Source of the DNA: Tepidisphaerales bacterium
GTDB taxonomy: Bacteria; Planctomycetota; Phycisphaerae; Tepidisphaerales; Tepidisphaeraceae
Direction of reading: 5' to 3'
Assembly: GCA_038224615.1 (NCBI GenBank)
Contig: JBBRFH010000001.1
Location: forward strand, 1 to 48,117
Length of the DNA stretch: 48,117 nt
Shown here: positions 3,536 to 43,934 of the stretch, piece by piece
Layout of the letters: each line of letters opens with the position of its first letter
Numbering within the stretch: the first letter of the stretch is position 1
Notes under the pieces: generated by a model
Told to the model about the DNA's origin: nothing
Databases searched by the model: none
The model's input: the letters and a program-made list of their open reading frames with translations, nothing else
Program-made: the position numbers and the translations under genes

Positions 3536-3639
3536 GTCATCCTGAACGAAGTGAAGGATCTACTTGCGGCGGCAGGGAGTTCACGATTTCGTGTGCGCCT
3601 TGCCGCGGCGAGAAGATCCTTCACTTTGTTCAGGATGAC
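3536..3639. repeat. hairpin repeat, GTCATCCTGAACGnAGTGAAGGA family (copy 1)
   Basis: A 25-nt arm GTCATCCTGAACGAAGTGAAGGATC (3536-3560) pairs with GATCCTTCACTTTGTTCAGGATGAC (3615-3639), with one G.U. It lies between convergent genes. A second copy is at 33559-33642. Confidence 0.85.
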
Positions 3640-5647: not shown

Positions 5648-6015
5648 GGCGCGAAAGCTAACATCCGACGGGGACGATTATAGCGACCCCTGCGCCCTGA
5701 ATCGCGCAACGGGTCCGGGAACAAATCCCGGCAAATTTTCGACGATTCCGGGCCGCCAGTGCGGTTGTGTTGCGCCAATCGTCCCGGAATCGCGCAATCG
5801 ACCTGTAGATAGGGAGGGACCGCACGCTCCGGAGGGGGAGGAGCCGAAGGCGTATAAAATTTGAAAAAACGAACCCAACTTGGTGCGTAAGCTGTTGAAA
5901 TAGAATCGCTTATAGGTCGACAACGGACCCAATTCCTGTTCCGTTGCGACGCCTTGGCGCACCTTGCCCGAGGAAGGATGAAGCGGCGCGGCGGCGCGGT
6001 ACAGTGCTGTGATCT

Positions 6016-6543
6016 ATGCAGACACGATTTACCAAGACCGCCGGAAATTGCTTTTTTGCGCCCAACGCCGTCGTTGTCGGGGATGTAACGATGGGTGAGC
6101 TGTGTTCGTTCTGGTTCGGCGCGGTCGTCCGAGGGGACGTCGCGCCGATCAAGATCGGGCGGCGGGTGAACGTGCAGGACAACGCCGTCATCCATTGCGA
6201 CAGCGGGGTGACGAACGTGATCGAGGACGACGTCACCATCGGGCACGGTGCGATCGTCCACGGGGCGCACATCGGTCACGGCTCGCTGGTGGGCATGGGA
6301 TCGACCGTGCTCGGGCAGTCGCAGATCGGCCACGAGTGCCTGGTCGCCGCCGGCGCGGTGGTGTCGCCGGGGATGATCGTGCCCGAGCGCATGGTGGTGA
6401 TGGGCGTGCCGGCCAAGATTGTTCGGCCGGTGAAGGACGAGGAACTGAAATACATGCGCTGGCTCAGCGAACACTACGTTAGGCTGGCCGAGAAGTACGT
6501 CGGTGACGGGTTCAAGTGCTGTGTCAGGAGTGAAGGCGCGTGA
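6016..6543 (+). CDS. gamma-carbonic-anhydrase-like hexapeptide-repeat protein (YrdA/PaaY family)
   Basis: Left-handed beta-helix repeats (IGRRVNVQDNAVIHCD.., IGHGAIVHGAHIGHGSLVGMGSTV) and typical length. Confidence 0.85.
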   Translation: MQTRFTKTAGNCFFAPNAVVVGDVTMGELCSFWFGAVVRGDVAPIKIGRRVNVQDNAVIHCDSGVTNVIEDDVTIGHGAIVHGAHIGHGSLVGMGSTVLGQSQIGHECLVAAGAVVSPGMIVPERMVVMGVPAKIVRPVKDEELKYMRWLSEHYVRLAEKYVGDGFKCCVRSEGA

Positions 6544-8513
6544 GAAGACTTTCGTCGTTGGTCGTCGGCGTGATCGCGCTTGCTTGCGTCGGGCGCGCGA
6601 TCGCGGGATCGTATGCGGCACCTCAGGACGTCTACGTCTCGACCCGCGCGATGGAGGCGTTGTCGGCCGACATCGCTGCGGGAAGGCCCACGGATGCGGT
6701 CGATCGGATCGAGACGATTTTCAACGACCCGGTGGCGCGGCTCGTGCGCACCGACGATAAACACGTCGTCTCCATCCAGGCGTGGGTGAACGCGCAACTG
6801 ACTGACCACGTCTTCCCGTTGCGGTTTCGCGAGCAGTATGAAAAAGTGGCGGGTCAGGCGGCGCAGAATGCGTTGGTCGATGCGGTTCACTCCAGCGACG
6901 TGCCCGCGATGATGGCTGTCGCCGAGCGGTATCCCTGGACGCTGGCGGCGCAGCAGGCGCCGATCGAAGCGGCGCAGCGGCTCATCGGGCTGGGCGACGT
7001 GCGCGGCGCCAAGGACCTGATCGGCCGGGTGACGCTGGACGACAAGGCACCGGCGGCGCTGCGGGCGCTGGCGACGCTGCCCGACGATTCGACGCTGGAA
7101 CCGGCTGCGTTTTCGACGGGATTCATTCGCGCCAAGCCCGCTTCTGGAGTGCTGGCACCGGCGGCGATGGTGCCACGACTGGTGCCGGTGGCGTCAAGCG
7201 ATGCGGTCTACCTGGCCGCACCGCATTCGATGCTGGCGTTGAACAAGCAGGGACGGATGCTGTGGTCGGTGATCGACCCGGCCCCCGAAATCCCGCCGCC
7301 GCCGACGGATTTGCCCAAGAGCATGGAAGGGCTCCTCGCGACTGACGCGTCGCTGGCGCGCCCGGCGGTGTGGTGCGATCCGGCTGGTACGCCGCGGGTA
7401 CTGGTCGCCCGGCAATCGACGTCGCTCAGGTCCTCGCTCCGCGCGGTGCGGCCGCTCGACGGATCGGTTATCTGGACGACCGTGTCGAGCGAGCCAGGCG
7501 GCGAACTGCTCTACGTCGGCGCACCGACGATCAGCGGGCGCTATGTCTACTCGCTGGCGGTGAGTGTCGACCCGGCGCGCGGACACCGGCTGTGCCTGGT
7601 CGCGCTAGAACTGGCGAGCGGGCGCGTGCTCTTCAACACCGAAATCGGCGCCGCCGAGCGGCGCATGGCCCAGCAGGTGCGGGCCGGCAAGGGTGAGAAG
7701 GAGCCTGACCCGATGTTGGCGGTGGTCAGCGAGTTCGTCTTCCGCGACAGCACGACGATCCATGCCGACGAGCGCAATGTCTACGTCGTGCCCGGCGGCG
7801 GGGCAGTGTGGTGCATCGACCGTTTCGGCGGGGCGATCCGCTGGGTCTCGCAGTATCCGGCCCGCGTGCCGCTGACCCCGCAGCAGGAACGCGAAGCGCA
7901 CGCCCGTCGCGAACAGGAACGCCAGGCCCGCGCCCGCCAGAAGCTTCCCCCCCTGCCGGCGGTGATCAACGTGCGCTGGCAGAACAACGCCCTGGCAAAC
8001 GACACGGCGGTCGTCGTCGCTCCGACCGACTCCAACGCCGTCGTGGCGTTCGACATCAGCAGCGGCAAGACGCTGTGGAACATCGACACATATGCCGATG
8101 CCGAACTGGCGGCTGTCCAAGCCGAGGTCGCGGTGCTGGTCTCAGCAACCAGGATCGTCGGCCTGCGGACAGGCACTGGCGAGCCCGCGTGGGAGGCGCC
8201 GCTGTCGGCCGAGCCGACCGGCCCGGCGTTCGTGGACGGCGACTGCGTCGGCGTCGTCTCAACCGCAGGCGTCTCGGAGTTCAGCATCAGCACCGGCCAA
8301 CCCGAAAAGCGCGAGCCCGGCCGACTTCTGCTGGACAATTTCCTGCGCACCCCGGTCACGCGGACGCTGTTCCAGACTGCCAACCTGCTCGCCTACTTCG
8401 GCGACCCGCCCGCACCGCCCGTCCCCGAAAAGCCCGAAAGACCCGCCAAGCCCGACAGATTGCCCCGCGACAAGAACAAGAAAGGCGGCGACAAGCCCCT
8501 GGGCGCGAACTGA
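6540..8513 (+). CDS. secreted PQQ-like beta-propeller repeat protein
   Basis: GTG start overlaps the upstream stop (GTGA). N-terminal signal peptide (LSSLVVGVIALACVGRAIAG). Repeated 'xxG..lWxx' blades (VVAFDISSGKTLWNI, GLRTGTGEPAWEAPL, GGAVWCIDRFGGAIRWV). Basic P/K-rich tail. Confidence 0.7.
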   Translation: MRRLSSLVVGVIALACVGRAIAGSYAAPQDVYVSTRAMEALSADIAAGRPTDAVDRIETIFNDPVARLVRTDDKHVVSIQAWVNAQLTDHVFPLRFREQYEKVAGQAAQNALVDAVHSSDVPAMMAVAERYPWTLAAQQAPIEAAQRLIGLGDVRGAKDLIGRVTLDDKAPAALRALATLPDDSTLEPAAFSTGFIRAKPASGVLAPAAMVPRLVPVASSDAVYLAAPHSMLALNKQGRMLWSVIDPAPEIPPPPTDLPKSMEGLLATDASLARPAVWCDPAGTPRVLVARQSTSLRSSLRAVRPLDGSVIWTTVSSEPGGELLYVGAPTISGRYVYSLAVSVDPARGHRLCLVALELASGRVLFNTEIGAAERRMAQQVRAGKGEKEPDPMLAVVSEFVFRDSTTIHADERNVYVVPGGGAVWCIDRFGGAIRWVSQYPARVPLTPQQEREAHARREQERQARARQKLPPLPAVINVRWQNNALANDTAVVVAPTDSNAVVAFDISSGKTLWNIDTYADAELAAVQAEVAVLVSATRIVGLRTGTGEPAWEAPLSAEPTGPAFVDGDCVGVVSTAGVSEFSISTGQPEKREPGRLLLDNFLRTPVTRTLFQTANLLAYFGDPPAPPVPEKPERPAKPDRLPRDKNKKGGDKPLGAN

Positions 8514-9022: not shown

Positions 9023-9133
9023 AATGTACTCCAAATCGGTCGAGCCGAGCATGATAGCAAGTTGTGTCCACCATACAAGCCCATCCCAAAAAGGAGAAAA
9101 GGCCGCAAAAGCCAATCGCCCCGGCACATCGTT

Positions 9134-9237
9134 AGAGAAGATTTCAGAACCGCAGATTACGCAGATGACGCAGATTTCCAAGGCGATTCATCTGCGCAAT
9201 CTGCGGTTCTCTCTCTCCAGTTCTGAAATAGCCTGTT
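9134..9237. repeat. hairpin repeat, CGCAGAT(T/G)A-unit family (copy c1)
   Basis: GAACCGCAGATTACGCAGATGACGCAGAT .. ATCTGCGCAATCTGCGGTTC, nested inside TTTCAGAAC / GTTCTGAAA. Confidence 0.85.
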
Positions 9238-9403
9238 ACGCTTTGGCGCGCCGACCAACCGAAAATACCCCATGGTCCGGCGAGGCTTTGTCGTCCTGAA
9301 CGCAATGGAGTTCTACTCCCCGACCTCTCCAGACCCGATTCGTGCCCCGATCGTGAACATTAGCTTCGACGGGTCAGCATTCGCGGAGTTTGCCGGGCGG
9401 ACC

Positions 9404-9490
9404 CGAATGACAAATGACAAAACTCGAATGACAAACGAGAAGACGCGGAGTCCTCTTCATTTGTCATTTGAGTTTTGTCATTCTTCATTG
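9404..9490. repeat. hairpin repeat built from ATGACAAA units
   Basis: CGAATGACAAATGACAAAACTCGAATGACAAAC pairs with TTTGTCATTTGAGTTTTGTCATTC. It lies just 3' of leuD. Confidence 0.8.
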
Positions 9491-10062: not shown

Positions 10063-10487
10063 AATTGGCTCCGAACGGGCGATCTTAGGGCGCAATCGGC
10101 GCGGACACAACGGCGACGCAGATCGGCTGTCGAAACGAAATAGAAATGTCTCCGATCTTAACGCAATAGAACTGTCCTCGTCTTCGTCGGCAAGGACGTA
10201 GGAGCCGCAGGCGACGGAGCCCTTGCCGGCGGGAGGATCGGGCGGATTCTGGGGGGAGGCAGGCGTGGATGCGGCGTGCAGGGAACATCCTTCGCGTTGG
10301 CGAAGGAGAATACGTCCGCACGAGTACCTGCAGGCCCTACGAGCTGCAAGCGGCTCGTCGTGTAGACCTTCCTCCAGCCCGGCCGGGGTTGTCCCCGACG
10401 GCAATCATATGTGCGCTCAGTCACCCCGCGTACTCGCGGAGAGGCTACGGCGTGGGTTTGCCGGTCGCGCTAGTTCTGCAAAAGACC

Positions 10488-10600
10488 TCTGGCTTTTGCC
10501 GCGAAGGCGCAAGCGACGTCCGGGTGGGTATGCGGCGATGGAGGGTCGCTTGCGCCTGCGCAGGTGTCTGTGTGCAACAGTCGGTCGCGCAAAAAGCCCC
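10488..10600 (+). repeat. ~115-nt structured dispersed repeat (copy i1)
   Basis: Shares TCTGGCTT(T/C)TGCCGCGAAGGCG.AAGCGACGT...GTCGCTTGCGCC(T)GCG..GTGTGCAA.AG.CGGTCGCGCA.AAAAGCC with 30391-30503 and 35694-35810. It has an internal long stem. Confidence 0.85.
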
Positions 10601-10729
10601 CCGTCCCAACCCTTGCCCGGCGTTCATGGAGAGTCAGACGCACATGCGATTGCCCTGGGTTTTCTATTGCGCCGATCCCCCGCGCTCTACCACCTCGCCG
10701 CCGTTTGGGTAATCTATCCCTAGACGCCT

Positions 10730-14462: not shown

Positions 14463-14684
14463 AGGTCGCAAGCGCGCACGACGGCCGCCCGATTGTTATC
14501 GGACATTGTCGGCGCAGGCGATGAGCATTTCATCCCCAAAAAGATCGCGGGCCGCCCCGGTCAAGGAGCGGCCCACGGACGTGTCAAAAATGGGAAGAAC
14601 CGGACGACTCAGGCCCGTCAATTCAGGTCAGCCGATTCAGGCCCGACGACGGCATGGTGTAACGAATCGTCAACGCCAATCGCA

Positions 14685-14797
14685 AACAGGCTATTTCAGA
14701 ACTAGAGAGAGAGAACCGCAGATGACGCAGATGACGCAGATTTCCGATGCGATCCATCTGCGCTATCAGCGTACTCCGCGGTTCTGAAATCTTCTCT
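14685..14797. repeat. hairpin repeat, CGCAGAT(T/G)A-unit family (copy c2)
   Basis: The outer flanks are the reverse complement of copy c1, but the central arms and loop keep the c1 orientation (see findings). Confidence 0.85.
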
Positions 14798-14829
14798 AAG
14801 GGCGTGCGAGCCTCGCGTGCGCGTAAGGT

Positions 14830-18141: not shown

Positions 18142-20457
18142 ATGTCCGTACGGGCGATCAAATCCAGAGTCATCTGCGATCGGAAAATACTCGAGTCCCT
18201 TTGGCGGACGCACACCGTTTTCAATGAGCGGTTGCGACAAGTGGTTCGTCTGTTATTCAAGATGAGACGCGGCGAGTTCGGCGCTTCACCAGCACTTAGG
18301 CAGCTCTATCGAACGATTGCGTTGCACATAACCCATCTGGAATCGCAAAGCGCTCCCTACTTGCTTCACTCGGTCAGCATCAAAAACTGGACTTCGAACA
18401 CCGCTAAAAAAATCAAACCGGTCAATGTTCATGTTGATGGAAAGGACCGCACGATTGCCGTTGAAGAGTGGGTAGATCGCGCTGAAGAATTGTTAGCGAA
18501 CGGCCAGTTGGCTTACGACAAGAAGGAAATGATGGGCGATCTCCCCGGGTGTATGCAGAATATGTTGACGCGTGAAGCTGTCGCAGTCATCTCCGGACAC
18601 AATGAATTGACGACTTTGTGGAAAAAAGAACACGAGCAATGGTTGAAGGACAAAGAGGCGTGGGAAGCTGGAGACGAACAGAAGAAGTACCTCGCCGTGA
18701 AGTGCCATTTCGACGCGTTTGAGGAATTGGTCGGTGGGAAGATCCGGCAACGGCGCGGACGTTGGCACAAGTATCTGGACTTCCTTCGATCACTCCCACA
18801 ACTCGCGGCGTGGCGCGGTGGTGAAGCGAAGGTCAACGAACTCGATGATGCCGCGCTCAAACTCATCGCCAAGGCTCGTCTGCACAAGCGTCGTTCTGTC
18901 GAAGCCGAGGAGTTCTGGTCACGCAACCCCGAACTTCGCGCCCTCGATAAACTTCACGGAGATTACGAAAAGAAGTTCATGCGCCGAGGGAAACCAAAAC
19001 GCAATCCAGATGGTTTCAAGCACCCCCCGACGTTTACCGAGCCTCATCCGACGCTTCATCCACGTTGGTTCGTATTCAACGCGCCCCAAACGAAGCCGCC
19101 GGGTTGGCGAAACCTCTGCATCCCCGGTGCCGCTTCCACGACCGGAAGTATCGATCTGCAACTGCTTACCGGCGACAAAGTCGACCATGCCTACCCTGCA
19201 GCGTGGTCAACCATTCAATTCAAGGCTGATCCACGACTCTGCGACTTTCGACCGACCCTGGTGAAGACAATCACCACCAAAGGAAAGAACAAGGGGCAGG
19301 AGAAGACTAAGGCGTCATTCCTGTTCCATGATCGTCAGTTGAAAATTGCTCGCCCGGCAAACATCTCCGGCACCAAGCTGATCTTCAAGTTGGGCGCCGA
19401 CGGACACCCAGTCGCCGCATTCCTTGTGTTCACCTGCGACATCGACAATCAACCGCTCACCGAAAAAGCCAAGGAGACCAAGAATGAATTCTCCGAAGAA
19501 CGCAATAGCAGAGGCAAGTCCAAGTTTCTTGGACGCAAGACACCCGACGGCTTGATCTCCCTCTCGGTCGACATCGGCATTCGCCACATCGGGTTTGCAT
19601 CGCTCGCCCGGTGGAACAGGGACCAATTGAAAGTCGAGCTGATCCGCGCGCGGAATATTCGGATTGATTCGCCAGAATCGGGTTCACCTGACCTCGCAGC
19701 GCTCGCCGCACACAAAAAGCTACTTCGTCGTCGCCGCAGCCAACGGGGCGATCCGATCAGGGGCGAAAAGTCACACGTCGAATTACAGCAGCATATCGAC
19801 CACATGGCCGAAGACCGCTTTAAAAAGGCCGCCCGTGCCATCATCAATCTGGCGCTCAACGCGTCCGGCGATATAGACAAGAAGACTGGCCACCCCTTTC
19901 CGCGCGCCGACATCCTCATTCTTGAGAACCTTGCCAATCTATTGCCCGATGCCGAAAAGGAGCGCGGTATCAACTCATCGCTGATTGAGTTTAACCGCGG
20001 TCAGCTCGTCGATCGTGTAAAACAAGTCGCCGAAGACGTCGGCCTAAAGTTGTTTGAGGTCAGCCCGGTAGGAACGAGTCAAGTCTGTCATCGGTGTGGC
20101 GGACTGGGTCGTAGATACTCCATCAAAAGGGAAGCCGAGTCCAAAGGTCAACGGAAGCGTCCGGTCATCCATTTTGGCGTGACCGAATCACTTTTTGCAT
20201 GTCCAAAGTGTCCTGCCTTGGGAATGAAGCACGCCAACGCTCCGTTCACATGCAACTCCGACTATAACGCAGCCATGAACATACAACGCCGGTTCTACCT
20301 CGGCGATTCCGCCGTCAGTGCGTACCCGGTCGGGCAAGCGAACAAAGCAAAGCGAGACGCAGCCTATCTGGTCATTGATACTGCTCTGAGTCAACGACTT
20401 CGAAAACTGCATAACCTAAACTCGCCTGAAGAATCGGTGGGAGATTTGCCTTGGTAA
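18142..20457 (+). CDS. cas12: compact type V CRISPR effector, Cas12b-like (771 aa)
   Basis: RuvC-I LSVDIGIRHIG (D477, nt 19570-19572). Arg-rich bridge helix KKLLRRRRSQRG. RuvC-II ADILILENL (E595, nt 19924-19926). Zinc ribbon C649xxC652...C687xxC690. RuvC-III CNSDYNAAMNIQ (D707, nt 20260-20262). The N-terminus MSVRAIKSRV..LWRTHTVFNE and the segment HIDHMAEDRFKKAARAIINLAL resemble Cas12b as I remember it. A CRISPR array lies 397 nt downstream on the same strand. Confidence 0.9.
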   Translation: MSVRAIKSRVICDRKILESLWRTHTVFNERLRQVVRLLFKMRRGEFGASPALRQLYRTIALHITHLESQSAPYLLHSVSIKNWTSNTAKKIKPVNVHVDGKDRTIAVEEWVDRAEELLANGQLAYDKKEMMGDLPGCMQNMLTREAVAVISGHNELTTLWKKEHEQWLKDKEAWEAGDEQKKYLAVKCHFDAFEELVGGKIRQRRGRWHKYLDFLRSLPQLAAWRGGEAKVNELDDAALKLIAKARLHKRRSVEAEEFWSRNPELRALDKLHGDYEKKFMRRGKPKRNPDGFKHPPTFTEPHPTLHPRWFVFNAPQTKPPGWRNLCIPGAASTTGSIDLQLLTGDKVDHAYPAAWSTIQFKADPRLCDFRPTLVKTITTKGKNKGQEKTKASFLFHDRQLKIARPANISGTKLIFKLGADGHPVAAFLVFTCDIDNQPLTEKAKETKNEFSEERNSRGKSKFLGRKTPDGLISLSVDIGIRHIGFASLARWNRDQLKVELIRARNIRIDSPESGSPDLAALAAHKKLLRRRRSQRGDPIRGEKSHVELQQHIDHMAEDRFKKAARAIINLALNASGDIDKKTGHPFPRADILILENLANLLPDAEKERGINSSLIEFNRGQLVDRVKQVAEDVGLKLFEVSPVGTSQVCHRCGGLGRRYSIKREAESKGQRKRPVIHFGVTESLFACPKCPALGMKHANAPFTCNSDYNAAMNIQRRFYLGDSAVSAYPVGQANKAKRDAAYLVIDTALSQRLRKLHNLNSPEESVGDLPW

Positions 20458-20502
20458 ATGACCGCGAACTCGGTAACATACCCCCTTCGCGTTCGTGCTT
20501 CG

Positions 20503-20540
20503 GCACCGCCGACCACAGCTATATGCAAGGTCGGTGGCGC
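20503..20540 (+). other. stable hairpin just 3' of cas12
   Basis: GCACCGCCGACC / GGTCGGTGGCGC stem (9 contiguous pairs including one G.U, plus 2 outer pairs) with a 14-nt loop. Its left arm contains CCGCCGA, complementary to repeat nt 26-32 (TCGGCGG). Confidence 0.5.
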
Positions 20541-20854
20541 GAGTAATACTGTGTTTGAGTGTCAACAGCCGTTGAGTCGAAGGCCGCCTCAATCGAGAAG
20601 GCCGAAAAGACATTATGGAGTCGGAGCAATCCGACCGAGGCGACGGTGACGCACAGTGAGTCGATCTTAGACAACCGAACCGATTGCGCGTGGTGACGTG
20701 GTGCGCGATTTGCCGGGGTTCCGCGAACCATCGTTCCGAAAGGGATTTGTGGAAGATCTTCCGGCTAATTTGGATACGGTCCGTACACGATTTTTCGAAC
20801 CTCGCGTATCCGTGATCCTAACTGATCGTCAATCAAGTTTTTCGACGAGGGTGG

Positions 20855-21178
20855 AATGCAGCGATTCGGACGGATTTGATCGGCGGACACGGATTGCTTG
20901 CTACACTCCGCCGCACCATTACATTCAATGCAGCGATTCGGACGGATTTGATCGGCGGACACCAGCGGCCTCAACCTGAAAAACCCGAACCCCAAAGCAA
21001 TGCAGCGATTCGGACGGATTTGATCGGCGGACACCGGGCCATACTCTTCGTCGAATCCCACAATCGTGCCAATGCAGCGATTCGGACGGATTTGATCGGC
21101 GGACACCAAGCCCTTGACCCCAGCGGCATGATATTGTGTGACAATGCAGCGATTCGGACGGATTTGATCGGCGGACAC
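20855..21178 (+). CRISPR. CRISPR array, 5 identical 36-nt repeats and 4 spacers of 36 nt
   Basis: Repeat AATGCAGCGATTCGGACGGATTTGATCGGCGGACAC at 20855, 20927, 20999, 21071 and 21143, an exact 72-nt period. The four spacers are unique. The strand given is the favoured one, not a proven one. Confidence 0.95.
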
Positions 21179-21269: not shown

Positions 21270-21324
21270 TCTCTTCCAACTGATCGCGCAGGTCGACTGA
21301 AGCGTTCCAAGCACCCAGACCTCG

Positions 21325-21352
21325 CCGCGCCCGCAGCGCGGTCTTTTTATTT
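21325..21352 (+). terminator. intrinsic terminator downstream of the CRISPR array
   Basis: CCGCGC-ccgca-GCGCGG stem followed by TCTTTTTATTT. No A-run lies upstream, so it is plus-strand specific. Confidence 0.65.
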
Positions 21353-21384: not shown

Positions 21385-21512
21385 GCGCGAAGCAGAACGC
21401 GAAGCGAAGACGGGAACCACAGATTTCACAGATGACACAGATTAGAAACAAATCAATCTGTGAAATCTGTGCAATCTGTGGTTCCAAAGCATTTCTCTGC
21501 TTCGCGGTTCTC
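21385..21512. repeat. composite long palindrome (CGCGAAG plus CACAGAT units), copy c3
   Basis: GCGCGAAGCAGAACGCGAAGCGAAGACGGGAACCACAGATTTCACAGATGACACAGATT .. AATCTGTGAAATCTGTGCAATCTGTGGTTCCAAAGCATTTCTCTGCTTCGCGGTTCTC. Confidence 0.8.
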
Positions 21513-22617: not shown

Positions 22618-22776
22618 GAACCGCGAAAGCGCGAAGGACGCGGAGAGAAGCGGGGGAACCGCAGATTACGCAGATTACGCAGATTCAGAAAAAACCAATT
22701 AATCTGCGTAATCTGCGGTTCCAAAGCATTTTCTCTGCTTTGCGTTTTCTTCGCGTCCTTTGCGCTTTCGCGGTTC
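22618..22776. repeat. composite long palindrome (CGCGAAG plus CGCAGATTA units), copy c4
   Basis: A ~160-nt imperfect palindrome: GAACCGCGAAAGCGCGAAGGACGCGG..GGAACCGCAGATTACGCAGATTACGCAGATT / AATCTGCGTAATCTGCGGTTCC..CGCGTCCTTTGCGCTTTCGCGGTTC. Confidence 0.85.
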
Positions 22777-25339: not shown

Positions 25340-25483
25340 TTTCGTGTTGTTGGCACAGCGGCGGAGTTCAAGAAACTTGGTGCAGGCCGCCCGCTTCGCG
25401 CTCGGCCGTCTCGTGTCGACGAAATCGCCGGCGAGCGCGATCGAAGACGCTCGACAGTAGTCGCGGATTTTTAGTGGAAGAGC

Positions 25484-25590
25484 AGAGACACGAAGGCACG
25501 AAAGCCACGAAGTTCATCGCGAAGAAATACATTGCACAACAATTGCCTTCTTCGTGGCTTCCTTCGTGGCTTTCGTGCCTTCGTGTCTCT
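25484..25590. repeat. hairpin repeat built from CACGAAGG units (copy d1)
   Basis: AGAGACACGAAGGCACGAAAGCCACGAAG .. CTTCGTGGCTTCCTTCGTGGCTTTCGTGCCTTCGTGTCTCT. Confidence 0.85.
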
Positions 25591-25752
25591 GTCGCATCGA
25601 GGCCAACCGCGGCGAACTCCACCTCACCCAACAGCACAACGGCTTCGACATCGAAATCGCGCATCCACGACGATGTGATGCTGTTCAGCTACGACGGCAA
25701 TCAGGCGAAATTCGTAGCGTGTACCAGTAGACCGATGTTATAGTTGAGTACG

Positions 25753-25971
25753 ATGACAACGCGATTGGCGCAGGTAATCGAGCGACTTCAGGAACTGCCC
25801 GCCGAGCAGCAGGACGTGGTCGCCGGGTTCATCCTGCATGAACTCAACGAGGACGACCGCTGGCTCAAGACAACAGCCGAGCACGAGGGGAAACTCGGTG
25901 GGCTGGTGGCAGATGTTCTCCGCGCAGATACGAACGGCGAATGCGACGATCTTGATCCCGAGAAACTGTGA
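25753..25971 (+). CDS. putative antitoxin (72 aa)
   Basis: Small acidic protein whose stop overlaps the GTG start of the RelE/ParE-like gene (GTGA). The role is inferred from position. Confidence 0.5.
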   Translation: MTTRLAQVIERLQELPAEQQDVVAGFILHELNEDDRWLKTTAEHEGKLGGLVADVLRADTNGECDDLDPEKL

Positions 25972-26237
25972 TCTCCCGCCGCCATCCGCACTTCAAGCGT
26001 GATTTCGCCCGCCTGCCGAAGCAAGTGCAGCAGCAGGCCCGCGAAGCGTATCGACGGTTCAAATGCGATCCGCAGCATCCGGGGATCGAGTTCAAAAAGC
26101 TTCACACGGCGCAGCCGCTTTGGTCGGTTCGCATTAATGACAGCTATCGCGCCGTTGGCGTGCGAGACGGCGAAAAAGTGATCTGGTTTTTCATTGGCAC
26201 GCATGCCCAGTACGACCAGATCCTCCGTAATCTTTAA
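25968..26237 (+). CDS. RelE/ParE-superfamily toxin
   Basis: 89 aa. F.RDFARLPK...FKKLH..QPLWSVRINDSYRAVGVRDGEKVIWFFIGTHAQYD is the typical RelE/ParE-like pattern. Confidence 0.6.
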   Translation: MISRRHPHFKRDFARLPKQVQQQAREAYRRFKCDPQHPGIEFKKLHTAQPLWSVRINDSYRAVGVRDGEKVIWFFIGTHAQYDQILRNL

Positions 26238-26934: not shown

Positions 26935-27681
26935 ATGTCCGAGCCGAAGATTCAAGTTCATCCCGATGCGGAGGCGATTGTCGAAGACGTCGCCGAGCGG
27001 TTGTTTGCGGTGTACAAGCAGTGCGTCGACCAGGGGCTGATGTTCTCGCTGTTTTTGTCAGGTGGATCGACGCCGAAGGCGCTGTACAAGTTGCTGGCGA
27101 GCGATCCGTTCAGGAGCGCGATCGACTGGAAGTCTGTCGAGTTGTACTTCGGCGACGAGCGCAGCGTGCCGCCGGATTCGGAGCTGTCGAATTACCGGAT
27201 GGCGAAGGAAGCGCTGATCAATCACGTGCCGATCCCCCTCGACAACGTCTATCGCATGAAAGGCGAGATCGACCCCGAAGAGGCCGCCAGGCAGTACGGG
27301 CAGATGCTGAAGGAGAAGTTCATCGACGAAGGCCCGGACGTGCTGCTGCTCGGCATGGGCGACGACGGGCACACGGCGTCGCTCTTCCCGGGGACGACGG
27401 CGCTGACCGAGACGCATCACCGCTGCGTCGCCAACCACGTCCCGCACGACTACATCCCGGCCGGCACGAACTGGCGGATCACGCTGACGTTTCCGTTCAT
27501 CAATCGCTCGCGCGAGATCTATATCCTTGCCACCGGCGCCAGCAAGGCCAAGCGCATCGAAGAAGTGCTGCTCGGCGATGAAGACGTCAACCGCCTCCCC
27601 ATCCGCGGCGTCCGCCCTGAGCCCGGCCAAGTCACATGGTTCATGGACGTGGCGGCGGCGGGCATGGAGGACGAGGAATGA
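26935..27681 (+). CDS. pgl: 6-phosphogluconolactonase
   Basis: LSGGSTPKALY, YFGDERSVPPD and LLLGMGDDGHTASLFPG motifs. Confidence 0.9.
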   Translation: MSEPKIQVHPDAEAIVEDVAERLFAVYKQCVDQGLMFSLFLSGGSTPKALYKLLASDPFRSAIDWKSVELYFGDERSVPPDSELSNYRMAKEALINHVPIPLDNVYRMKGEIDPEEAARQYGQMLKEKFIDEGPDVLLLGMGDDGHTASLFPGTTALTETHHRCVANHVPHDYIPAGTNWRITLTFPFINRSREIYILATGASKAKRIEEVLLGDEDVNRLPIRGVRPEPGQVTWFMDVAAAGMEDEE

Positions 27682-27754
27682 CCAATGAAAAATGACCAAT
27701 GACCACTGCAGGCGCCTGCCCTCATTGGTCATTGGTCATTATTCATTGGTCATT
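27677..27754. repeat. hairpin repeat built from GACCAATGA units
   Basis: AATGACCAATGAAAAATGACCAATGACCA .. TCATTGGTCATTGGTCATTATTCATTGGTCATT. It overlaps the pgl stop codon. Confidence 0.85.
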
Positions 27755-30115: not shown

Positions 30116-30390
30116 CCGACGGACTGCGGCGAGTTGCCCCAATCGTGGCCGATAGGGCGGGCGGACTGCCCGCCCTATCCGCTGATCCGGTGCCCCGGAA
30201 ATGCCCTCTGAAGTCCCGCAACGCCCGCATCCGTCACTCGCGTGCCCGAAAGGGTTCAGTCCCGCATGGCACGCTATCTGCGTGCCGTTTCGTCGCCCTT
30301 GTAGAGGCGGCACGGAAGTGGCGTTCCCCGACGGCTCACGAAGACCATTGATCTCAGACGCTCACCGTCCGCGATCGCTTTACACAAATA

Positions 30391-30503
30391 GTCTGGCTTC
30401 TGACGCGAAGGCGTAAGCGACGTCCGCGTTGACATACGGCGATGGGTAGTCGCTTGCGCCTTCGCGGGCTTTTGTGTGCAAAAGACGGTCGCGCAGAAAA
30501 GCC
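30391..30503 (+). repeat. ~115-nt structured dispersed repeat (copy i2)
   Basis: Same family and orientation as 10488-10600 and 35694-35810. It ends 125 nt upstream of the gnd start. Confidence 0.85.
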
Positions 30504-30627
30504 TCTTCGCCAGCTCTCCTCCGGCGTACCGGGAGAGCGAGCCAGACGTACATGCGGTTGCCAAACGCTCCCAAAACTTCACAATGGCGCGTCCTGACAC
30601 GGGGAAAACACGCAATAAGGAACGCAC

Positions 30628-35580: not shown

Positions 35581-35693
35581 GGATCTCCCAAGGTTGGTTG
35601 GTTCATTCTGAACGCGGGCGATGACGCTAACACGCGACCGGCGCACGGTCAACGATTCATTCGCCGCACTGTCGCGATAGCGTTGCAGAAAAA

Positions 35694-35810
35694 GTCTGGC
35701 TTCTGCCGCGAAGGCGAAAGCGACGTGCGCCTTGGTATGCGATGATCGGTAGTCGCTTGCGCCTTCGCGGGCATTTGTGTGTGCAACGGTCGGTCCCAAA
35801 GAAAAGCCCC
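35694..35810 (+). repeat. ~115-nt structured dispersed repeat (copy i3)
   Basis: Same family and orientation as i1 and i2. Confidence 0.85.
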
Positions 35811-35862
35811 GCCCCAACTTTATCCCATCCCTGCCCTGGCGTACTGGGCGCGCGTGCCCGGA

Positions 35863-37012: not shown

Positions 37013-37103
37013 CGCGTTTGTGTCGTGAAACCTGCTCGCCAGCTCAAGGTGTCGAACGACGAATAAGTCCCACCCCCTGCATTGCGTGTTCCGAAAAAAA
37101 ATA

Positions 37104-37208
37104 CGAGCCGCGAAGCTGCGAAGAGCGCGAAGACAGACGCGAAGAATGCTCATTTCTTTATGTTCCCCTTCGCGTTGATCTTTGCGCTCTTCGCAGCTTT
37201 GCGGCTCG
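37104..37208. repeat. hairpin repeat built from CGCGAAG units
   Basis: CGAGCCGCGAAGCTGCGAAGAGCGCGAAGACAGACGCGAAG .. CTTCGCGTTGATCTTTGCGCTCTTCGCAGCTTTGCGGCTCG. Confidence 0.85.
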
Positions 37209-37339
37209 CATTGGATTTTATCCGCGGGTTTCATGGCGTAAACGTTTGCCGCGTCCGCGTCGTGCCCAGGCGGCGCTGTGCATCATGGCCGCGACGCGAT
37301 TGACGGTGCCGGCGACAAACGTTCCGACTTCGCCTCGCT

Positions 37340-40355: not shown

Positions 40356-40366
40356 AGGTTCGATTT

Positions 40367-40525
40367 ACCACGAAGACACGAAGGATGCACGAAGGAGCAC
40401 GAAGACGAGAAACCCCGAATCTGCACGAATCGACACGAAACTAGAAGAAGGCAGAAAACCGTTTTCTTTGCATTGGCTCCTCTTGTATTCGTGTTCCTTC
40501 GTGCCTCCTTCGTGTCTTCGTGGTG
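40367..40525. repeat. hairpin repeat built from CACGAAGG units (copy d3)
   Basis: ACCACGAAGACACGAAGGATGCACGAAGGAGCACGAAG .. CGTGTTCCTTCGTGCCTCCTTCGTGTCTTCGTGGTG with a ~75-nt loop. Confidence 0.85.
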
Positions 40526-40533
40526 AAAGCATT

Positions 40534-43787: not shown

Positions 43788-43934
43788 GTCATTGGTTGCC
43801 GGTTACGGATTACTGGTTGCCGGTTGCCGGTTACTTGTTACTTGTTACTGGGCGACGCTCGACGCTCGACGCGCGAAAGTCGCTCGTGCTACCAGTTGCG
43901 ACAAGTAACAAGTAACAAATAACAAGTAACGAAT
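43788..43934. repeat. hairpin repeat built from GTTAC/GTAACAAG units (copy g2) plus A/C-rich tail
   Basis: GGTCATTGGTTGCCGGTTACGGATTACTGGTTGCCGGTTGCCGGTTACTTGTTACTTGTTACTGG .. CCAGTTGCGACAAGTAACAAGTAACAAATAACAAGTAACGAAT, followed by a low-complexity CCAAC/CTAAC tract up to 44010. Confidence 0.8.

Follow-up and report, generated by a model that had tools for sequence, protein, structure and literature searches.

Cas12b2, the effector of type V-B2 CRISPR-Cas systems, was described in the 2023 TnpB/Cas12 survey as a protein of 700-800 amino acids (aa), found mostly in Planctomycetota and forming the deepest branch of the Cas12b1/Cas12b2 clade; a Cas1-Cas4 fusion and Cas2 accompany it in some loci only, and the effector is experimentally uncharacterized (PMC10691335). 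A2167_01685 is given as the V-B2 exemplar in a review (PMC8036902) that reprints the classification table of CRISPR-Cas systems from 2020. The hallmark of type V-B guide RNAs is that they hybridize in two discontinuous regions, one of them adjoining the spacer (PMC6546382); the trans-activating CRISPR RNAs (tracrRNAs) of Cas12b map between cas12b and the array, and the Cas12b family members tested so far use T-rich protospacer-adjacent motifs (PAMs) (PMC6342934). We analyzed a stretch of 48,117 nucleotides (nt) from a Tepidisphaerales bacterium (assembly GCA_038224615.1, contig JBBRFH010000001.1), referred to below as the window. It very probably harbors a type V-B2 CRISPR-Cas interference locus, composed of a cas12b2 gene, a tracrRNA gene and a five-repeat array, all on the + strand and within a chromosomal island of low GC content. 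Every point of the published Cas12b2 description fits the protein of the window and its family.

Assignment of the effector to Cas12b2

The effector was compared with known systems at the level of profiles, sequences and folds. Two short Cas12b profiles of PADLOC-DB recognize it; one of 664 positions is matched end to end (E-value = 7e-180), and the "Cas12b / CAS-V-B effector" profile PDLC01655 (720 positions) is matched with an E-value of 1e-247 (822 bits), covering residues 19-760 of the protein and positions 2-714 of the profile. The V-B2 exemplar, OHB62175.1 (locus tag A2167_01685, 743 aa), encoded at 6001-8232 of the related locus L008 (Planctomycetes bacterium RBG_13_46_10, scaffold_1401), falls in the same size class and matches the same profile end to end, with 1497 bits. 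The two proteins align over their full length with 47% identity and 65% positives across 774 aligned columns; a 10-aa insertion that follows the second CxxC and precedes RuvC-III distinguishes them. The exemplar has a second GenBank accession, QBM02859.1, and was therefore deposited separately by someone, perhaps as a construct; a literature search found no paper mentioning QBM02859.1, and the supplements of Strecker 2019 do not mention the Planctomycetes protein.

Among solved structures, Cas12b1 (type V-B1) is the best match in both sequence and fold. Searches of the PDB, with the single sequence as well as with a family profile, ranked BthCas12b (5wti) and AacCas12b (5wqe, 5u30, 5u34) first, the profile search reaching an E-value of 4e-16 against BthCas12b. 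The profile alignment is collinear in three regions, namely the N-terminus (MSVRAI...LWRTH.VFN vs MATRSF...LWKTHEVLN), the WED motif (TFT.P....HPRW.VFN vs TFTLPDATAHPIWTRFD) and RuvC-I/II/III, so that an N-terminal strand with LW(K/R)TH, a TFTxPxxxxHPxW WED motif and the RuvC motifs are shared with Cas12b1. An AlphaFold2 model, computed with the family alignment as input (mean predicted local distance difference test score, 83.5), was compared with the PDB by Foldseek. Cas12b chains took the top four places, with E-values from 3.8e-23 (BthCas12b) to 2.3e-17 and TMq 0.54-0.56, and were followed by Cas12X, Cas12h, Cas12o and Cas12g. Membership of Cas12g, considered on account of size, was rejected, as the single-sequence PDB search gave no Cas12g match and the profile search matched the C-terminal part only.

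The initial annotation, made from the sequence alone, had noted parallels with AacCas12b and proposed either a miniaturized Cas12b or an intermediate between TnpB and Cas12b. HMMER alignments to AacCas12b and BthCas12b reproduce those parallels (N-terminus, TFTxPxxxxHPxW, SVDLG and HIDHxxEDRxKK), the resemblance greatly exceeding chance expectation, and the proposal is supported by the full-length match to a short Cas12b profile and by the top rank of Cas12b in the PDB and Foldseek searches. The similarity is also broader than generic RuvC motifs, running collinearly from the N-terminus through WED to RuvC. What had been overlooked is that the variant is already catalogued as type V-B2/Cas12b2, of which the protein, judging from its sequence, is a new and fairly divergent member.

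A search of 5.8 billion proteins yielded 135 relatives, nearly all of 720-810 aa, with 93-100% query coverage and 40-67% identity; more than 100 homologues of 720-810 aa align to the window protein end to end. Given this uniformity in length and coverage, a protein of 771 aa has the size native to the family. A truncated or misassembled gene, which the annotation had named as a possible refutation, is ruled out by these full-length homologues and by the in-frame stop that closely precedes the ATG. When cluster representatives were scanned exhaustively with HMMER, 56 proteins had an E-value below 1e-30. The nearest named relatives come from metagenome-assembled genomes of Tepidisphaeraceae, Phycisphaerae and Pirellulales, with outliers in Acidobacteriota, Verrucomicrobia, Chloroflexota and Thermodesulfobacteriota, and the nearest named protein is 67% identical to that of the window. 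A protein of 731 aa as called (P0001), on a 3.3-kb metagenome contig of the Joint Genome Institute (JGI), is 99% identical to it, and therefore the same or a very close organism has been sampled independently.

Effector gene and domain organization

The open reading frame (ORF) at 18142..20457 (+) comprises 771 codons and a stop, that is, a gene of 2.3 kb. The start is unambiguous, as the ATG is preceded, two codons upstream, by an in-frame stop. According to the AlphaFold2 model and the alignments, from which approximate domain borders were taken, the protein consists of WED-I (aa 1-12), a helical REC1 (aa 13-290), the WED-II beta-barrel (aa ~295-465), RuvC-I (aa 466-510), a reduced REC2 (aa 518-572), RuvC-II (aa ~585-640), a zinc-ribbon TNB domain (aa 645-700), RuvC-III (aa 701-725) and a C-terminal helix (aa 732-756). 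The catalytic residues are D477 in LSVDIGI, E595 in LILENLA and D707 in CNSDYNA, and the zinc ribbon is formed by C649-x2-C652 and C687-x2-C690, separated by 34 aa. Alignment of 37 full-length members of the family shows no variation at E595 or at any of the four cysteines, and D477 and D707 are kept in at least 90% of the sequences. All three RuvC catalytic residues are thus intact, catalysis itself being a prediction. The translation bears out the residues and the CxxC(34 aa)CxxC arrangement exactly as they had been annotated, and the four peptides quoted as evidence at that time are present at aa 1-31, 297-313, 471-482 and 547-572.

The protein is about 340 aa shorter than Cas12b1 (~1100 aa). 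A difference noted at annotation, a very short insert between RuvC-I and RuvC-II, was measured here on HMMER alignments. D477 and E595 are 118 aa apart, compared with 254 aa between D574 and E828 of BthCas12b, and in place of the large REC2 insertion the AlphaFold2 model shows two helices (aa 518-535 and 543-572). Further shortening is seen in REC1 and at the C-terminus in the profile alignment. The zinc ribbon had been called TnpB-type, and its region indeed matches Pfam PF07282, the Cas12f1-like TNB domain (1.9e-9). Its first CxxC aligns to a cysteine-free segment of BthCas12b (TSQVCSRCGALGRRYS vs SSRFHAKTGSPGIRCS); the alignment is poor where the second lies. With TnpB and Cas12f the protein shares the core of RuvC and zinc-ribbon TNB and a short REC2-like helical hairpin, but it differs from them in its large REC1, its Cas12b-type WED and its association with a CRISPR array and with an RNA that acts in trans instead of an omega RNA. 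Cas12b acts as a monomer, and this protein may do likewise.

CRISPR array and related loci

A repeat search located the CRISPR array at 20855..21178 (+), beginning about 396-397 bp downstream of cas12b2 on the same strand. It contains five identical 36-nt repeats (AATGCAGCGATTCGGACGGATTTGATCGGCGGACAC), starting at 20855, 20927, 20999, 21071 and 21143, and four 36-nt spacers at 20891-20926, 20963-20998, 21035-21070 and 21107-21142, the first of which is GGATTGCTTGCTACACTCCGCCGCACCATTACATTC. The 3' end of the repeat is GACAC; Cas12b1 repeats end in GCAC. Downstream of the array, at 21324..21352 (+), a GC hairpin followed by a T-run resembles a terminator by consensus match only, and the scan that found it returned three such sites in comparison with about five expected from shuffled controls, i.e., no enrichment. 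The hairpin is consistent with + strand transcription of the array.

This organization recurs in the family. Of 28 related loci, 20 carry an array on the strand of the gene, at a distance of 390-540 bp downstream, and most of the others stop at a contig edge. Well-resolved repeats are 32-37 nt long, mostly 36, and end in (G/T)GACAC, with CCGACAC (L015) and GAACAC (L020) as variants. Ten of the 28 loci, including that of the closest relative (L001), also carry cas2 and a cas4-cas1 fusion, usually directly upstream of cas12b2; the fusion protein is 565-596 aa long (Pfam Cas_Cas4 and Cas_Cas1) and Cas2 96 aa. The V-B-specific Cas4-Cas1 fusion is shared between Cas12b1 systems and these loci. The exemplar locus (A2167_01675-A2167_01685) has the same order as the window, with the gene, ~0.4-0.5 kb containing a tracr-like RNA and the array, as well as the same repeat length and GACAC 3' end. 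It differs in having cas4-cas1 and cas2 directly upstream, both of which the window lacks, and in the 5' half of the repeat, which has diverged together with the matching anti-repeat. A different order was observed in the divergent Chloroflexota member (L020 6001-10781), where cas12b2 is followed by cas4-cas1, cas2, the tracr-like RNA and the array, so that the RNA adjoins the array and not the effector.

Candidate tracrRNA

The gap between gene and array is itself conserved across the family, in blocks comprising CUAUAG, GAGUGUCAA, a GGC...GCC hairpin, GGCGGC and GAC. We built a covariance model from 17 other loci, excluding the window, and searched the 48 kb with it. A single significant match was obtained at 20511-20666 (+), over the full model length (86.3 bits, E-value = 2.5e-20), the next best having an E-value of 1.4. 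The same model also matches just downstream of the gene in L004, L011, L012, L018, L022, L023 and L025, none of which had been used for training. In the RNAalifold consensus, compensatory changes occur in 13 of 20 pairs; paired cells make up 91.6%, vs 77% in shuffles and at most 55% in slid controls, and none of 500 shuffles reaches any of five measures. Searches against Rfam gave no family at gathering score anywhere in the window. The candidate tracrRNA is placed at about 20511..20689 (+), consisting of this core and an anti-repeat running on to 20689; conservation may begin near 20490.

Two segments of the RNA are complementary to the repeat. The motif GAGUGUCAA at 20557..20565 (+) is found in 19 of 21 related intergenic regions, and the GUGUC within it (20559-20563) is the complement of GACAC, the invariant 3' end of the repeat. 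We propose that GUGUC and GACAC would form the spacer-proximal hybrid. In one compensatory case, that of L020, the motif reads GUGUU where the repeat ends in AACAC. The second segment, the anti-repeat AGUCGAUCUUAGACAACCGAACCGAUUGCGC at 20659..20689 (+), corresponds to the distal hybrid; it adjoins the core on the 3' side, in a position that corresponds by homology to the anti-repeats of other loci, and is predicted to pair with repeat positions 2-31 (RNAduplex, -26.3 kcal/mol). The last 8 nt of the core (AGUCGAUC, 20659-20666) pair with the eight repeat nt preceding GACAC. For this proximal 8-bp helix, 96.3% of cells are paired across 17 loci and compensatory changes occur in seven of the eight pairs; none of 500 shuffles is as high and slid controls stay at or below 52%. 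From there the duplex of the window runs on to 20689 with internal loops. A direct anti-repeat search and whole-intergenic RNAduplex were ambiguous for the window, as GC-rich control regions folded equally well, and the anti-repeat was settled only by alignment to related loci and by covariation. Across loci, cognate duplexes are more stable than non-cognate ones (-41.9 vs -32.3 kcal/mol), which supports co-evolution of repeat and anti-repeat overall.

A conserved UUUGACAA motif (UUAGACAA in the window, 20667-20674) was also observed inside or just after the anti-repeat. Further examples are at L016 8555-8565 and in L007, L019, L024 and L028; on the repeat side the motif faces an unpaired stretch that is shorter. 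The motif is similar to a -35 hexamer (TTGACA), but may instead be a bulge recognized by a protein or an RNase.

With its two-part anti-repeat and its position between gene and array, the candidate has the features reported for Cas12b1 tracrRNAs (PMC6546382, PMC6342934). The match to the covariance model and the covariation of anti-repeat and repeat support a V-B-type tracrRNA with anti-repeat in the window, whose expression and processing are predicted. The model may exceed the accessible V-B2 literature, yet it follows the V-B1 pattern.

Proposed mechanism

With effector gene, tracrRNA and array, the locus is complete for interference, and its effector likely mediates tracrRNA-dependent, PAM-dependent cleavage of double-stranded DNA (dsDNA) as in Cas12b. 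The pre-crRNA, made of repeat-spacer units, and the tracrRNA would be transcribed from the + strand. The tracrRNA would then pair each repeat in the two discontinuous segments, GUGUC with the 3'-terminal GACAC by the spacer and the longer 3' anti-repeat with the rest, and the duplex would be trimmed by an RNase of the host, presumably RNase III, as in other systems with a tracrRNA. Cas12b2 loaded with the dual RNA would find dsDNA flanked by a PAM, expected to be 5' and T-rich by analogy with Cas12b, and a single RuvC site (D477/E595/D707), aided by the zinc-ribbon target-loading domain, would cut both strands. In this scheme we infer expression, RNase III processing, the PAM, cleavage and the choice of DNA over RNA as the target. 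What the computations show is that the protein belongs to the family and keeps its catalytic and zinc residues, that an array is linked to the gene across the family, that a structured RNA is conserved, and that anti-repeat and repeat covary.

A number of observations weigh against the assignment to a working type V-B2 locus. The protein reaches 79.3 bits on the NCBIfam Cas12b1 equivalog NF033949, whose cut-off is 150, and the match is broken into three stretches, the best at residues 532-659; by its scores and matches the protein lies outside the canonical Cas12b1 equivalog, as well as outside TnpB and Cas12g. The literature searched holds no experiments on any V-B2 effector. A scan for sigma-70-like promoters detected no site, and tblastn with the Cas4-Cas1 and Cas2 proteins of L001 and L008 found neither cas4-cas1 nor cas2 in the window, so that new spacers would need Cas4-Cas1/Cas2 encoded elsewhere, or else the locus has ceased to adapt. 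Most relatives have a stronger repeat/anti-repeat duplex, and when 16 repeats are ordered by duplex energy with the window's tracrRNA, that of the window itself comes 13th; this rank is uninformative because GC-rich foreign repeats bind anything. In addition, RNAalifold can also pair UGUC/GUGUC with an alternative partner, the conserved GAC inside the tracrRNA (20648-20650). Because both partners are invariant, sequence alone cannot choose between them, and the internal pairing could be an alternative conformation adopted without crRNA. Finally, a search of 50,697 phage genomes with 198 spacers of the family gave no match, IMG/VR had no exact match to the 5' 22-mer of any of the four spacers in the window, and no self-targets of spacers occur in the window or the related loci. 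Because no protospacers were found, neither a target type nor a PAM can be inferred.

Alternative explanations

The alternative that survives best keeps the V-B2 assignment and changes the activity. The minimal REC2, the ancestral zinc ribbon and a distinct, strongly conserved tracrRNA (CUAUAG, GAGUGUCAA, UUUGACAA) could be accompanied by a different substrate or PAM logic, i.e., nicking only, an RNA or single-stranded DNA (ssDNA) target as in Cas12g, or an unusual PAM. We regard this as unlikely.

A Cas12g-like (type V-G) system, with a tracrRNA-dependent effector of ~770 aa directed at RNA instead of PAM-flanked dsDNA, is improbable. Cas12g depends on a tracrRNA, targets RNA and then degrades RNA and ssDNA collaterally. 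The window protein has the same size as Cas12g (767-aa chains 6xmf and 8i3q), its family profile matches Cas12g chains from RuvC-II to RuvC-III (7.5e-12), Foldseek returns Cas12g with an E-value of 8.6e-12, the exemplar L008 matches PADLOC Cas12g profiles at ~1e-13, and the lack of protospacers is compatible with an RNA target. However, the relationship is confined to the RuvC-II/TNB/RuvC-III region (profile positions 574-716), with no similarity detected outside the C-terminal third, while the similarity to Cas12b is collinear over the whole length and higher in every search; moreover, the window protein itself has no PADLOC Cas12g match. V-G loci are said to lack adaptation genes and any other cas genes (PMC10691335), whereas relatives of the window locus carry the V-B-specific Cas4-Cas1 fusion. 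RNA-targeting activity of the Cas12g kind is less likely because of this whole-length affinity and the V-B-type adaptation module.

There is equally little to recommend a decaying or non-adapting remnant, in which an effector and a short array would have been acquired horizontally without an adaptation module and immunity would have been lost or replaced by a non-defence use. Such a reading would accommodate the lack of cas1, cas2 and cas4 in 48 kb, the presence of only five repeats, the weak duplex, the failure to find a promoter-like site and the base composition, GC being 0.53-0.56 in the segment with cas12b2, tracrRNA and array (~17.7-21.9 kb) against 0.60-0.67 in its flanks. The ORF is nevertheless intact with all catalytic and zinc residues, the five repeats are identical, and the tracrRNA core matches the covariance model along its full length with 86 bits. 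Adaptation genes could sit elsewhere in the genome, and many relatives with long arrays, e.g., L016 with 19 repeats and L026 with 25, also have none adjacent.

That the protein is a transposon nuclease of the TnpB type (IS605 OrfB) working with an omega RNA is scarcely credible, since the TnpB-type zinc ribbon with its PF07282 match, the JGI labels of "transposase" or "IS605 OrfB" on some homologues and the match to NCBIfam TnpB NF040570 (43.8 bits, under the cut-off of 100) stand against a protein about twice the size of TnpB with Cas12b-like REC1 and WED, an array after the gene in 20 and cas4-cas1/cas2 in 10 of the 28 loci, no second gene-tracr-array copy among the direct and inverted repeats of the window, and a conserved RNA that pairs with repeats in trans and does not end in a guide.

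Genomic surroundings

The type V-B2 locus lies among housekeeping genes, which comprise FtsW/RodA, a phosphodiester glycosidase, succinyl-CoA ligase alpha, a Kelch-repeat protein and MTHFR; sucD is upstream of the cas12b2 segment, and the Kelch-repeat protein and MTHFR are downstream. The occurrence of a low-GC island of ~4 kb in such a neighborhood suggests that a minimal module was acquired horizontally.

About 4.5 kb downstream of the array, a cassette at 25744-26237 contains a 75-aa ORF with no Pfam hit that overlaps by 4 nt with an 89-aa ParE-like toxin (PF24732, 5e-11), and is probably a toxin-antitoxin pair. The window also holds many intergenic near-perfect hairpins whose arms are made of tandem short units, e.g., CGCAGAT(T/G)A, CACGAAGG, AATGACC and GTTACTT. 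They are located at 3536-3639, 9124-9248, 9406-9489, 14674-14807, 21413-21485, 22618-22776, 25483-25591, 27677-27754, 37100-37212, 40364-40527 and 43823-43930. One of them lies 235 bp past the CRISPR array. Hairpin sequence is common to the sites 9124-9248 and 14674-14807, and to 21414-21494 and 22647-22731. They may belong to a family of elements that is repetitive extragenic palindrome (REP)- or miniature inverted-repeat transposable element (MITE)-like, or terminator-like. A 173-nt direct repeat is present in three copies with 62-73% identity (10461-10633, 30365-30537 and 35668-35840), which could be paralogous coding sequence or a dispersed element.

Significance of the locus

The V-B2 family is already catalogued, is represented in public defence-system profiles and has been discussed as an ancestral-like small Cas12b, and the classification of CRISPR systems is unchanged by our finding. 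What the window adds is a complete, apparently intact and minimal interference locus without adaptation genes. The comparison with related loci yields elements that can be used as they stand, namely a tracrRNA whose limits are delineated and whose helices are backed by covariation, an anti-repeat in two parts, and GACAC as the conserved 3' handle of the repeat. Together they suffice for the design of dual or single guide RNAs. The practical appeal of a Cas12b-lineage nuclease encoded by a 2.3-kb gene is real, its activity being predicted only; if Cas12b2 does cut dsDNA, it would provide a monomeric Cas12b-lineage editor of ~770 aa with a guide scaffold definable from the present data. Cas12b2, described as the deepest and smallest branch of the Cas12b clade, is a surviving step in the enlargement that led from TnpB to the large Cas12b editors.

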